Shown here one piece after another: positions 25,373 through 30,597 of a DNA stretch of 56,200 nucleotides (within the stretch, counting starts at the first letter, position 1; every line of letters starts with the position of its first letter). Below the pieces are notes generated by a model. It saw nothing but the letters and a program-made list of their open reading frames with translations, was not told the origin of the DNA and ran no database searches. The stretch lies in contig JAMDBG010000088.1 of assembly GCA_023487865.1 (NCBI GenBank), positions 1 through 56,200 on the forward strand, given 5' to 3'. The DNA is from Deltaproteobacteria bacterium (GTDB taxonomy: Bacteria > Desulfobacterota > Syntrophia > Syntrophales > UBA5619). The position numbers and the translations under genes are program-made.

Positions 25373-26632
25373 ATGGAGATCATCACCGCCGTCAAGGGTT
25401 TCAAGGACATTCTCCCCCCCGAGACAGACAAGTGGCGGCATATCGAAAATACGGCCTATAATGTTTTTCGTACTTTTGGATTCAGTGAGATCTGTATTCC
25501 CCTTATAGAAAAAACCGAACTTTTTCGACGGGGAATAGGTGAATCCACAGATATCGTCGAAAAAGAGATGTACACATTCCTCGACCGGGGCGAAGAGTCA
25601 CTGACACTCCGTCCGGAAGCCACTGCTTCGGTCATTCGCGCCTATCTGGAGCACACACTCCATGCAGTCGAATCCGTAACAAGGCTCTTTACCATCGGTC
25701 CGATGTTCAGGAGGGAAAGGCCACAAAAGGGCCGCTACCGCCAATTCTATCAGATTGACGTCGAAATTCTCGGTCCGGATGATCCACGCACCGATGCCGA
25801 ACTTATCCTGATGCTGATGCATTTTCTCGACCGCCTCGGGTTGAAAAACCTCACTCTGGAAATCAATTCCCTCGGTTGTGATGAATGCCGCCCCACTTTC
25901 AGGGAGGCCATCGTCCAATTTCTCCGCGGCACAGAAAAGGAACTCTGCGAAGACTGCCGGCGTCGGATTGGAACGAATCCGCTACGCGTTTTCGACTGCA
26001 AAGTGGAAAAATGCGGGGAGATCATCTCGCAGGCCCCCCGCTTGATGGATTTTGTCTGTGTGGACTGTCGGGAACATTTTACACAGGTCGAGGATCGTCT
26101 AACCCTCTTTGCGATTCCTTATACTGTGAACGCAAAAATGGTGCGCGGACTCGACTATTATACAAGAACGACATTTGAAGTAAAAACGGAATCCCTTGGC
26201 GCACAGAATGCCATACTGGGTGGCGGACGATACGATCATCTCGTCCGGGATCTTGGCGGGCCGGATATTTCCGGTATCGGTTTTGCCATCGGCATGGAAC
26301 GTCTGGCAGCCCTGATCCCGGATAAGGAAAAGAATCCAGCGGACAGTCCTTTCCTCTTCATCGCTGCCATTGGCGACAAAGCTGTTGATAAGGCTTTTTT
26401 CCTGTCCAACCGCCTGCGGATGAGGGGAATTCGCGTAGAGACGGACTATTCCGGCAGGAGTCTGAAAAGTCAGATGAAGAGGGCGGACAAACTGAAAAGT
26501 AGCTTTGTTCTGATTATCGGTGAAAGGGAGGTTTCGGAGAACCGGGCTCTCTTCAGGAATATGCATACCAGCAGCCAGGAAGAGATCGGACTTGATAAGC
26601 TTGAAGAAACCATCATGAAGATAGCGAGGTAA
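25373..26632 (+). CDS. hisS: histidine--tRNA ligase
   Basis: 419-aa ORF with GFKDILP, motif 2 MFRRERPQKGRYRQFYQ, the HisRS block GGGRYD, and a C-terminal anticodon-binding domain. Confidence 0.95.
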   Translation: MEIITAVKGFKDILPPETDKWRHIENTAYNVFRTFGFSEICIPLIEKTELFRRGIGESTDIVEKEMYTFLDRGEESLTLRPEATASVIRAYLEHTLHAVESVTRLFTIGPMFRRERPQKGRYRQFYQIDVEILGPDDPRTDAELILMLMHFLDRLGLKNLTLEINSLGCDECRPTFREAIVQFLRGTEKELCEDCRRRIGTNPLRVFDCKVEKCGEIISQAPRLMDFVCVDCREHFTQVEDRLTLFAIPYTVNAKMVRGLDYYTRTTFEVKTESLGAQNAILGGGRYDHLVRDLGGPDISGIGFAIGMERLAALIPDKEKNPADSPFLFIAAIGDKAVDKAFFLSNRLRMRGIRVETDYSGRSLKSQMKRADKLKSSFVLIIGEREVSENRALFRNMHTSSQEEIGLDKLEETIMKIAR

Positions 26633-26638
26633 GAAGTA

Positions 26639-28417
26639 TTGTCTGACTTTTTGAGGATTTTAAAAAGAACCCATTACTGCGGCGACCTGAATGCCACCCA
26701 TGTCGGTGAAGAGGTGATCCTGATGGGATGGGCCCACCGGCGAAGAGATCATGGCGGAGTGATCTTTATCGATCTCAGAGACCGGGAAGGACTTGTGCAG
26801 GTCGTGTTCAATCCGGAAATCAGCCTCGCTTGCCATAGCGAGGCTGGACGAATCAGGTCTGAATTTGTCCTTGCGATAAAGGGTCTTGTTCGAAAGCGGC
26901 CGGAAGGGATGGAGAATCCAGATCTGAAAACCGGAGCGATTGAAGTTATGGCCAGTGATCTTGAGATCCTCAATGAATCGAAGACCCCCCCTTTTCTTCT
27001 CGACAATACGGCTGAAATCTCAGAAAACGTGCGACTCAAGTATCGCTATCTCGATCTCAGGCGTCCCGAAATCCAGAAAAACCTCATCCTGAGAAGCCGT
27101 GTCGCTGCTGCTGCTCGGGAGTTTTTCTACCAGGAAGGGTTCATCGAAGTAGAGACCCCGTTCCTGACAAAGAGTACCCCGGAAGGTGCCCGCGATTATC
27201 TGGTTCCCAGCCGCGTCAACCAGGGGATGTTTTATGCCCTGCCCCAGTCGCCGCAGATCTTCAAGCAGTTGCTGATGGTTTCAGGTTTCGATCGTTATTA
27301 TCAGATCGTCAAGTGCTTCCGGGACGAAGACCTCCGGGCCGACCGGCAGCCTGAGTTTACCCAGATCGATGTGGAGATGTCCTTCATTACTCAAGAGGAT
27401 ATCATAAAGATCATGGAGAGGATGATGGCCCACCTCTTTTCGGTCTGCCTTGGGAAAGAGCTGTCCCTCCCCTTCCCCCGGATTTCCTATGTGGAGGCGA
27501 TAAACCGCTTCGGTAAAGACAGTCCCGATATGCGCTTTGGTCTGGAAATTCACGACCTAACGGATATCTTGATGAATTCGGGATTCAAGCTCTTCGCGGA
27601 GATCGTTTCCGGCGGCGGCGTAATCAAGGCTATCTCTATAGAAAACGGAACCTCTCTCTCCCGCAAGGATCTGGACGAGCTCAGGGATTATGTCGCTCAG
27701 TACGGGGCAAAGGGTCTGGCCTGGGCAAGGATTACCCCGGAAGGCTGGACTTCACCGATTTTTAAATTCCTTACGCCGGATGAGGTAGCAGCCATCAATA
27801 AAAAAATGGATGCTCGCGAAGGCGCTGTTCTCCTGTTTGTAGCCGATTCACCGAACGTCGCCCGAGACGCCCTGGGCAATCTGCGGATCCACTTGGCGAA
27901 GAAGCTGATGCTGATTGATCCCGAGAAGCTGGCATTTACGTGGGTGACCGAATTTCCCCTTTTTGATTACAGCGAAACAGAAAAGCGGTTTGTCTCCACA
28001 CACCACCCTTTCACATCTCCGGTCCCGGAAGAGATTCCCCTAATCGAAACGGATCCGGATAAAGTCCATGCCCAGGCCTATGATCTGGTCCTCAATGGAT
28101 CAGAGGTCGGTGGAGGCAGCATCCGGATCCACAGGAAAGAGGTTCAGAAGCTGATTTTCAAGGCCCTTGGCCTGAGCGACGACGAGGCGAAAAACAAATT
28201 CGGGTTTCTCCTCGATGCCCTTGAATACGGGACTCCTCCCCACGGGGGGATTGCCTTCGGTCTTGACCGGCTGGTCATGCTGATGACAGGAGCGGAGTCT
28301 ATTCGGGATGTGATTGCCTTCCCCAAAACCCAGAAGGCCACCTGCATGCTCACGGATGCTCCGTCTCAGGTTAGTGTGGAACAGCTTATGGAACTTTCGC
28401 TGAAGATCGTGATCTGA
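26639..28417 (+). CDS. aspS: aspartate--tRNA ligase
   Basis: 592-aa ORF (TTG start) with an OB-fold N-terminus (RTHYCGDL), [26 protein letters not shown] and GIAFGLDRL. Confidence 0.95.
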
Positions 28418-28426
28418 TCTTTTTTA

Positions 28427-28455
28427 TTGACAAAGCACCACGATATGCCTATTCT
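28427..28455 (+). promoter_or_regulatory. sigma70-like promoter candidate, 10 nt after the aspS stop
   Basis: TTGACA (28427-28432), 17-nt spacer, TATTCT (28450-28455). Confidence 0.45.
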
Positions 28456-28634
28456 CCTAACATGCAGAGAATATCGATCGCCAAGCCGTTAAGATTAACC
28501 GATTATAGTGACCATATGACGATCATTGGAGAAAATAATAAGAACAGACAACGTGCATGCGCGACCGCCCGCGGGGCGTTGCCATCGCGCACCGTTTTGA
28601 TATCCGGATGAAAGCATCCGGGATCGGGGCAGCG
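28456..28634 (+). promoter_or_regulatory. structured leader or candidate small RNA upstream of the citrate-synthase-like gene
   Basis: Hairpins TGCGCGA...TCGCGCA (28558-28591, enclosing CGCCC-GCG-GGGCG) and TCCGGATG-AAAG-CATCCGG (28603-28621). Bounded by the promoter-like element on one side and a strong terminator on the other. Confidence 0.4.
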
Positions 28635-28669
28635 AGGGCACGATTTATTTATGTGCCCTTTTTTTATTT
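28635..28669 (+). terminator. intrinsic terminator 43 nt upstream of the next start codon
   Basis: AGGGCAC (28635-28641), 11-nt loop, GTGCCCT (28653-28659), running into TTTTTTTATTT. Confidence 0.7.
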
Positions 28670-28707
28670 GAGAATTTGAACACTCACGACAATGGGGGTC
28701 CGGAGTC

Positions 28708-30597
28708 ATGGCAAAATGGAACAGAGATAAAAAAGTACTCGATCATGAGCATACAAACTTCTGGAAGTTTGATCTCAAGGAGGTGTCGGAGCCAAACCTT
28801 CAAAAAGATGTCTTTCCCTATGATGAGGTCTGCCGGATCGATTTCGACCATCGGATCATCTCCATAAATCCTGCGGAGGATATGTTTATTACCGACACGA
28901 CGTTCCGGGACGGACAGCAGGCAAGACCTCCATATACGGTGCAGCAGATTGCGGATCTCTATTCCCTGATGAGCCGATTGGGTGGACCCAACGGTGTGAT
29001 CCGTCAGTCCGAATTCTTCCTATATAGCGTCAAAGATCGGGAAGCGGTGGAAAAATGCCAGTCCCTCGGCTTACGCTATCCGGAAATCACCGGCTGGATC
29101 AGGGCCAGCACCGACGATGTCCCTCTGGTCAAACAGGCAGGACTGAAGGAGACCGGGATTCTCACTTCCGTGTCCGACTACCATATTTTTCTTAAGTTAG
29201 GCAAGACACGTAAACAAGCGCTGGAGGACTATCTCGGGATCGTCCGTTCCATCCTCGCTGCAGGCATCATCCCCCGCTGTCATTTTGAAGACATCACGAG
29301 AGGTGACATTTACGGTTTCTGCATCCCCTTTGCCATCGAACTGATGAGATTGAGAGAGGAAAGCGGTATCGACATCAAGATCAGACTCTGCGACACGATG
29401 GGATACGGTGTAACCTATCCTGGTGCTGCCCTTCCCAGAAGCGTCGACAAACTCGTCAGGGCGTTCATTGAGGACGCGGGAGTTCCCGGTCATCTTCTCG
29501 AGTGGCATGGTCACAATGATTTTCACAAGGCGATGATCAATGCGACCACCGCCTGGCTCTATGGTTGTAGCGCGGCAAATACCACCCTGCTCGGTCTGGG
29601 TGAACGGACGGGAAATCCGCCCATGGAAGGATTGATCATCGAATATATCAGTCTCCGCGGAAACGCAAACGGGATAGATACGACCGTGATCACTGATATT
29701 GCGCGCTATTTCGAGAAGGAAATCGGGATTCGGATTCCGCCGAATTTCCCGCTTGTCGGGGCGGATTTCAATGTGACCAGGGCAGGTGTTCATGTCGACG
29801 GTCTGATCAAGTGTGAAGAAATCTACAATATCTTCGACACGACAAAACTCCTGAAGCGACCGATTATCCCGATGATCACCGATAAGTCGGGTAAGGCGGG
29901 GATCGCTTTCTGGATCAACACCCATCTTGGACTCACGGGCGATAACACCATCGATAAGCGTCACCCAGGTGTCTCCCGAATCCATAAGTGGATTACCGAG
30001 GAATATGAGGGCGGTCGGATGACCAGCATCTCGAACGAGGAACTGGAAAAGCGGGTAAGAAAATACCTGCCCGAGCTTTTCATGTCCGATCTGGAGAAAA
30101 TCAAGTTCATGGCGGCTCAGGCGGCCGTTTCGGTGGTGAAAAAGGTTATCGACCATCCGGACATGAAGACTATGAAACCGGAACTACAGGAGCCGGTCAT
30201 GCAGCAGTTCATGGAAGAGAATCCTTCGATCCAATTCGCCTATGTCGTCGACATGAACGGCCGCAAAACAACACGAAACATCACCAATATTGCCGACCGT
30301 CCCAAGTATGAAAACTACGGGATCGGCACGGATCAATCGGACCGCGAATGGTTCATCAAACCGCTTCAGTCCGGCAAGATCCATGTTACTGAATTCTATA
30401 TTTCCAAGATGACCGGAGCGCTTTGCATTACCGTCTCTGCGCCGATCATGGACGAGCGGGATGAGATGGTAGGGATATTTGGTGTCGACATCAAGTTCGA
30501 GGATTGGGTCAAGCGTGCGGAAGATATTGCCGAGGCGACACAGATCGCCCTCCGAGGGGAGTATGAGGCAAAATCGCGATCGGACCGATGGCTGTAA
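28708..30597 (+). CDS. Re-citrate synthase-like DRE-TIM metallolyase (homocitrate/isopropylmalate synthase family) fused to a C-terminal Cache/PAS-like domain
   Basis: 629-aa ORF. Catalytic blocks are ITDTTFRDGQQ and EWHGHNDFH, plus LGLGERTGN. Residues ~460-629 carry a Cache-type pattern: AYVVDMNGRK...SDREWFIKPLQSGKIHVTEFYISKMTGALCITVSAPIMDERDEMVGIFGVDIKFED. No signal peptide or TM helix. Confidence 0.7.
   Translation: MAKWNRDKKVLDHEHTNFWKFDLKEVSEPNLQKDVFPYDEVCRIDFDHRIISINPAEDMFITDTTFRDGQQARPPYTVQQIADLYSLMSRLGGPNGVIRQSEFFLYSVKDREAVEKCQSLGLRYPEITGWIRASTDDVPLVKQAGLKETGILTSVSDYHIFLKLGKTRKQALEDYLGIVRSILAAGIIPRCHFEDITRGDIYGFCIPFAIELMRLREESGIDIKIRLCDTMGYGVTYPGAALPRSVDKLVRAFIEDAGVPGHLLEWHGHNDFHKAMINATTAWLYGCSAANTTLLGLGERTGNPPMEGLIIEYISLRGNANGIDTTVITDIARYFEKEIGIRIPPNFPLVGADFNVTRAGVHVDGLIKCEEIYNIFDTTKLLKRPIIPMITDKSGKAGIAFWINTHLGLTGDNTIDKRHPGVSRIHKWITEEYEGGRMTSISNEELEKRVRKYLPELFMSDLEKIKFMAAQAAVSVVKKVIDHPDMKTMKPELQEPVMQQFMEENPSIQFAYVVDMNGRKTTRNITNIADRPKYENYGIGTDQSDREWFIKPLQSGKIHVTEFYISKMTGALCITVSAPIMDERDEMVGIFGVDIKFEDWVKRAEDIAEATQIALRGEYEAKSRSDRWL

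Follow-up and report, generated by a model that had tools for sequence, protein, structure and literature searches.

A gene at positions 28,708 to 30,597 of the forward strand of contig JAMDBG010000088.1 (Deltaproteobacteria bacterium, order Syntrophales; assembly GCA_023487865.1) probably encodes a Re-face-specific citrate synthase (EC 2.3.3.3) whose C-terminal Cache domain acts as an allosteric sensor, most likely of an amino acid. The window, as used here, is the whole 56,200-nucleotide (nt) stretch of that contig that was analyzed. An earlier note, made from the letters of the window, had reported the open reading frame (ORF), two catalytic motifs and a Cache-like C terminus, and had treated the fusion as unusual. 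The ORF was found as reported on the + strand, its ATG has GGAG 2 nt ahead, and its translation, P0001, is 629 amino acids (aa) long. P0001 aligned with P0297, the SYN_02536 protein of Syntrophus aciditrophicus, over 629 of 629 residues without gaps and at 79% identity. The gene and the parts of its product are as follows (pLDDT, predicted local distance difference test; HMM, hidden Markov model).

28,708 to 30,597, + strand: Re-citrate synthase gene, long (Cache-tailed) form, 629 codons plus stop (ORF list and translation)
28,708 to 28,887, + strand: N-terminal extension, residues 1 to 60, typical of the Re-citrate synthase clade (orthologue alignment)
28,888 to 29,706, + strand: HMGL-like DRE-TIM catalytic barrel, residues 61 to 333 (Pfam PF00682, E value 3e-25; match in the genome scan)
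29,707 to 30,081, + strand: post-barrel helical subdomain, residues 334 to 458 (helices in the full-length AlphaFold2 model, pLDDT about 90)
30,082 to 30,504, + strand: single Cache/PDC module, residues 459 to 599 (PF22673, AlphaFold2, Foldseek, and profile against PDB)
30,343 to 30,489, + strand: putative ligand pocket, R546, W548, F549, Y564, S566, and D594 (HMM alignment onto PctA)
30,505 to 30,594, + strand: C-terminal helix and tail, residues 600 to 629 (AlphaFold2 model)

Domain layout and fold of the tail

The motifs TDTTFRDGQQ and HGHNDFH were located at residues 62 to 71 and 267 to 273 of P0001, and R67, D68, H267, and H269 within them were invariant in 61 sequences. Syntrophales orthologues aligned with P0001 from residue 1 onward, and P29, L31, Y38, and F46 of the N-terminal extension were conserved. 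AlphaFold2 modeled the full-length protein with a pLDDT of 89.7. Relatives show weak HCS_D2 matches in the post-barrel subdomain, and unfused relatives stop at query residues 446 to 460, which coincides with the domain boundary of about 455 to 460 that the earlier note had drawn. A final helix spans residues 597 to 628 in the full-length model, with pLDDT below 50 past residue 610; the last ~25 residues occur only in the Syntrophales clade and are conserved with SYN_02536, and proteins of other lineages stop near residue 605. A 319-aa ORF lies antisense within the synthase gene (29,197 to 30,156, − strand) and most likely reflects a frame left open by chance in GC-rich coding sequence.

Pfam placed MCP-like_PDC_1 (PF22673), which models the first PDC module in double-Cache chemoreceptors, at residues 497 to 599 with an E value of 6e-13 and 49.6 bits against a cut-off of 27. 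The dCache_1 model matched the same stretch at 36.9 bits, below its cut-off of 45, and LeuA_dimer had no match in P0001 at an E value of ≤1 in the Pfam search, as the assignment of the C terminus to Cache and not to LeuA_dimer had anticipated. The fold comparison suggested at that time was carried out on the tail, for which AlphaFold2 modeled residues 445 to 629 (pLDDT of 85) as long N-terminal helices at 461 to 504 followed by a PAS-like sheet with strands within 508 to 596. A Foldseek search of the PDB with this model returned, at probability 1.0, Cache/PDC sensor domains only, namely, those of Bacillus subtilis KinD, Campylobacter jejuni Tlp3, WalK/YycG, PctA, Mlp24/37, and TlpA, with an E value of 4e-8 for the KinD, Tlp3, and WalK sensor domains. 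Moreover, the profile of alignment A1, which comprises residues 445 to 629 and 55 homologues from many lineages, matched Tlp3 (2e-10), KinD (8e-10), and PctA (6e-8) among PDB sequences, and YkuI was among its weak matches (E value of 0.004). Only one PDC module is present, as the strand at 587 to 596 is followed by a helix and then by the end of the protein. When the tail by itself was used as the query, most of the sequences recovered were fragments from its own family, and a two-chain prediction of residues 1 to 444 with residues 445 to 629 scored 0.09 against a mark of 0.32, which was uninformative either way on docking of the tail to the barrel. We conclude from the agreement of Pfam, AlphaFold2, and Foldseek that the tail is a single Cache/PDC fold.

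The maximum 19-residue mean Kyte-Doolittle hydropathy in P0001 was only 1.26, and the protein is therefore without a signal peptide and without a transmembrane (TM) helix, in agreement with the earlier note. Placement outside the cytoplasm between TM helices is typical of Cache domains (78% of members) but not obligatory, and YkuI_C and Diacid_rec provide a precedent for soluble cytoplasmic modules (Upadhyay et al. 2016, PMC4822843). YkuI_C and Diacid_rec are attached to signaling or transcription outputs (EAL domains and CdaR-type regulators), whereas the Cache domain of P0001 is attached to a biosynthetic enzyme, and the tail is far less similar in sequence to them than to dCache_1 receptors. 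The Cache survey likewise describes domains attached to signaling outputs and not to metabolic enzymes (PMC4822843). We conclude that the Cache module of P0001 is cytoplasmic.

The putative pocket and the role of the tail

Mean column identity across the whole tail was 49% in A1, and five columns, W548, F549, S566, L572, and D594, were invariant in 56 of 56 sequences. R546 (53/56), T569 (54/56), and Y564 (44/56, with Phe in 6) were also among the most conserved columns. HMM alignment to PctA placed R546 on R126, W548 on W128, F549 on Y129, Y564 on Y144, S566 on D146, and D594 on D173, and the spacing from the Trp to the Tyr was identical, at 16 residues, in the tail and in PctA. In dCache_1 amino acid receptors, Y121, R126, and W128 hold the ligand carboxylate while Y144 and D173 hold the ligand amino group; in PctA, R126A weakened binding 61-fold, and D173A or D173N abolished it (PMC8915833). 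Four of the five positions of this motif (AA_motif) are kept in the tail, as R546, W548, Y564, and D594, and these residues may form an amino acid-type pocket, with contacts read from the HMM alignment to solved receptors. An invariant Asp combined with the Arg/Trp pair would therefore point to a ligand that carries a carboxylate as well as an amino group, and an amino acid is the most likely candidate.

Some features of the tail speak against that assignment. The PctA Y121 position is occupied by Thr541, and by E, T, Y, or D across the family; 12 of the 56 sequences have F, I, H, K, or T in place of Y564; and the tail is a single PDC unit, whereas the motif was defined in double Cache domains. 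The fold of the tail corresponds to the membrane-distal module of the dCache_1AA sensors (PctA, Tlp3, and Mlp24/37; Gumerov et al. 2022, PMC8915833), but the tail is single, cytoplasmic, and without flanking TM helices, and it has lost the Y121 position. Moreover, the tail is C-terminal to its presumed output, and that output is a metabolic enzyme rather than a signaling domain.

Our best inference is that the tail would be an allosteric ligand sensor, taking the place held by LeuA_dimer in isopropylmalate and citramalate synthases. In LeuA and CimA, as in P0001, helical subdomains and then a C-terminal add-on follow the DRE-TIM Claisen-condensing core; the add-on of P0001 is a Cache/PDC domain, unrelated in fold to their LeuA_dimer domain, which mediates end-product feedback. 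In MAMS, loss of the LeuA_dimer domain abolishes leucine feedback (PMC11532901). The DRE-TIM barrel of P0001 would condense acetyl-CoA with oxaloacetate and so feed the oxidative branch of the tricarboxylic acid (TCA) cycle toward 2-oxoglutarate and glutamate. Because the enzyme would commit carbon to the branch that leads to glutamate, feedback by glutamate suggests itself as a hypothesis, and glutamate, as the pathway end product, would be the obvious candidate ligand, with aspartate, a proxy for oxaloacetate, as the alternative. Since the enzyme is N-terminal to the sensor, the signal would travel via the long N-terminal Cache helix and the post-barrel helical subdomain; extracellular Cache domains have been described as signaling through their C-terminal helix (PMC4822843). 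That the tail is a true intracellular glutamate or aspartate sensor that sets Re-citrate synthase activity, joined in the lineage of the window by an attenuator-like GAGGGCRC hairpin, is a tentative proposal that may well prove wrong. If the proposal is correct, the tail would be the first Cache domain shown to regulate a metabolic enzyme from within the same chain, and its signal would run "backwards," by way of the N-terminal helix. No study of the role of the tail was found in a literature search on Cache domains and citrate synthase, which gave unrelated papers and lay outside those of Kim et al. (2013) and of Li et al. (2007).

The short form is represented by the Clostridium kluyveri enzyme CKL_0973 (Li et al. 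2007, J Bacteriol 189:4299) and by the putative enzyme CAC0970 of Clostridium acetobutylicum, which have the same core, with TDTTFRD, EWHGHNDF, and GERTGN, and the reaction predicted for P0001, but end a few residues past the post-barrel subdomain, without a Cache domain (PMC12016533 supplement). Because CKL_0973 ends after the core, the short form without a tail is catalytically competent, and the tail would be dispensable for catalysis in view of where the characterized clostridial enzymes end, right after the catalytic core. A mainly structural tail, which supports oligomerization or stability of the long form and keeps its pocket residues for folding, would fit with the habit of Cache sensors to dimerize along the long N-terminal helix. 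It would also fit with the S. aciditrophicus enzyme, which is reportedly a homotetramer of ~73-kDa subunits, a size that suits a 629-aa protein, and is said to need GroEL for soluble expression. Nonetheless, the invariant positions line the ligand pocket in homologous sensors and not the helix interface, and enzymes without the tail show activity and branch within the same clade, such that a structural role is unlikely.

Sensing of a carboxylate that is not an amino acid (2-oxoglutarate, citrate, pyruvate, succinate, or acetate), by which the tail would report TCA or carbon status, is also rather unlikely. Many Cache modules bind C2 to C4 carboxylates, the closest structural match of the tail is the pyruvate-binding sensor of KinD, KinD shares the D-R-x-[FW]-F and S-x-Y-S-S-R-I-T-G stretches, and the PctA Y121 position is lost. 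In the HMM alignment, however, KinD keeps the Arg but has Ala at the position of the invariant Asp, and thus the Asp that contacts the amino group (the D173 position) is absent from KinD but present in every family member of A1 (56/56), and a Tyr occupies the Y144 position in 44 of them. We continue to favor an amino acid as the ligand. Re-citrate synthase is the only entry to the oxidative TCA branch, and so to glutamate synthesis, in many strict anaerobes, including syntrophs, sulfate reducers, gut Desulfovibrionaceae, and anammox-associated lineages. Were the tail to sense an amino acid, it would explain how carbon flow into glutamate is throttled in such organisms, and the conserved Cache amino acid pocket would extend from cell surface receptors to direct control of an enzyme.

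Enzyme identity and spread of the long form

Judging from the full-length alignment, P0001 is an orthologue of the characterized Re-citrate synthase, and the 79% identity to SYN_02536 upholds the earlier assignment to a DRE-TIM enzyme of the Re-citrate synthase type. SYN_02536 of S. aciditrophicus SB (Kim et al. 2013, J Bacteriol 195:1689) has the same 629 aa, three-part architecture, Cache tail, and clade-specific C-terminal helix, and its tail shares SDREWF, FYISKMTGALC, and GVDI with P0001. P0297 agrees with the sequence given under "SYN_02536, Re-citrate synthase" in the PMC12016533 supplement, which begins MAKWNPQKRVLNHEH and ends KYKSDHWL, save for machine-reading errors in that supplement. 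Close homologues are called "citrate (Re)-synthase" by JGI. The S. aciditrophicus enzyme is said to use only acetyl-CoA and oxaloacetate.

The NCBIfam equivalog models for isopropylmalate, homocitrate, and citramalate synthase were tried on P0001, and all were rejected, as the best score was 125.7 bits against cut-offs of 413 to 950 bits. The genome to which the window belongs (G000; 2.2 Mb, 79% complete) encodes a separate LeuA (787 bits) and CimA (715 bits) elsewhere, as well as two HMG-CoA-lyase-like genes and a 667-aa aconitase-family ORF. A homocitrate, citramalate, or other 2-oxoacid-condensing enzyme in place of a citrate synthase, an outcome that the earlier note had itself raised, is highly improbable: although the catalytic domain matches generic HMGL-like models only, and the closest solved sequence relatives of the barrel are citramalate, homocitrate, and isopropylmalate synthases, every equivalog model falls far below its cut-off, LeuA and CimA have dedicated genes of their own, and the full-length identity is to an enzyme reportedly confined to acetyl-CoA and oxaloacetate. 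A PF00285 search found no Si-type citrate synthase in G000, where it gave two weak partial matches only (35 and 23 bits), both to citryl-CoA-lyase-like ORFs; at 79% completeness an Si-citrate synthase may have been missed, and its absence is not proven. Two tandem ORFs of 297 and 247 aa on another contig of G000 (C204:366-2255; L081) have weak, sub-cut-off citryl-CoA lyase matches and are the sole Citrate_synt-like sequences in that genome.

A full-length, Cache-tailed orthologue was present in 87 of 121 sampled Syntrophales genomes, nearly always as a single copy. In a scan of one genome per species, at least 598 species had a relative, and the best 80 of these relatives, in which the tail was checked, all carried it. 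Tailed proteins occur in Syntrophales, other Thermodesulfobacteriota, Desulfovibrio/Bilophila/Mailhella, Nitrospirota, Lentisphaerota, Elusimicrobia, Spirochaetales, Omnitrophota, Termititenax, and one contig labeled Odoribacter, and the three Pfam domains are already recorded on hundreds of 629-aa homologues in public databases. The fusion, which the earlier note had taken to be out of the ordinary, is thus the standard "long form," with the same architecture as SYN_02536. It is already-known material, although no description of it as a fusion was found. We conclude that P0001 is an ordinary orthologue and that the Cache tail is a family trait, not one specific to the window; the question of the ligand and function of the tail concerns the whole family.

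Other forms of the family were collected by an exhaustive search of 50%-identity representatives. Unfused forms were 445 to 476 aa long and 49 to 54% identical, and one was from Oceanidesulfovibrio. P0136 has an N-terminal response-regulator receiver domain instead of a Cache tail and a core that is 60% identical, and its gene begins 11 nt downstream of one for a histidine kinase (L131:44-3332, Logan contig SRR22388308_364066, a single 3.4-kb contig). No recognizable sensor domain was found in that kinase. The pair would be a two-component system with a citrate synthase-like enzyme as its output. Distant members with 35 to 41% identity were P0163 (833 aa), P0183, and P0232 (the latter two 607 and 623 aa), which comprise one ATP-grasp/L-amino-acid-ligase fusion and two archaeal-type proteins with weak ACT-like C termini below the Pfam cut-off; one of the three, from an uncultured archaeon, is annotated CimA. 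The C-terminal extensions of P0154 and P0161 had no match to Pfam or to the Cache profile. The receiver fusion and the weak ACT-like C termini suggest that the Re-citrate synthase family accepts regulatory add-ons.

A maximum-likelihood tree of catalytic cores, rooted on the LeuA and CimA of G000, was built by a quick search with half of the tailed rows. All Cache-tailed forms fell in one clade with a support of 96 in the Shimodaira-Hasegawa-like approximate likelihood ratio test (SH-aLRT), and a few unfused forms and the receiver-fused form were nested inside it. This topology is most simply read as an early gain of the tail with losses or swaps later on, and a single origin is not proven by the tree. 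NCBI records name both long and short forms "histone-lysine N-methyltransferase" or "triose-phosphate isomerase" (P0007, P0020, P0122, P0130, P0285, and others), and this systematic misnaming conceals citrate synthase when the metabolism of anaerobes is reconstructed.

The upstream leader

A 290-nt gap separates the synthase gene from aspS, and in the window, as in S. aciditrophicus, the aspS stop is immediately followed by the sequence TATTGACA. Two elements were recognized within the gap.

28,427 to 28,455, + strand: putative promoter-like TTGACA-17-TATTCT immediately downstream of the aspS stop (consensus scan, 10 of 12 matches)
28,634 to 28,666, + strand: terminator-like hairpin GAGGGCAC-N11-GTGCCCT plus T-run (sequence reading and centroid structure)

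The hairpin and T-run end 45 nt before the ATG. Comparison of upstream regions (window 28,427 to 28,707, L001, L004, L005, and L099 to L126) showed that 24 of the 41 Syntrophales orthologues have such a hairpin with a T-run, placed 22 to 72 nt ahead of the start codon, and most of the 24 share the GAGGGCRC 5′ arm regardless of whether the upstream gene is aspS with the leader or a different coding gene. The hairpin was absent from the upstream regions checked in S. aciditrophicus, a second Syntrophus genome, and a genome of the same genus as the window (G110). The leader occurs once in G000, which rules it out as a repeat element. There is too little room for a promoter between the hairpin and the start, and transcripts must therefore traverse the hairpin; such passage would be compatible with attenuation, and the GAGGGCRC hairpin may be a lineage-specific attenuator. 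An Rfam scan of 28,300 to 28,800 matched no family, the whole leader was not more stable than shuffled sequence (z = −1.1), and no alternative pairing was found for the leader hairpin. The regulation at two levels that had been proposed for the gene, by a conditional leader and by the tail, is only half supported: the hairpin is conserved in 24 of 41 orthologues but is absent from S. aciditrophicus and matches no Rfam family, and no observation pointed to conditional action.

The window has an extra structured leader of ~190 nt with the hairpin, whereas S. aciditrophicus has ~105 nt and no hairpin, with the same aspS gene upstream. In the window, aspS lies directly upstream of the synthase gene and is preceded by hisS (25,373 to 28,417), and aspS is also directly upstream in S. 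aciditrophicus (L127) and in several other Syntrophales.

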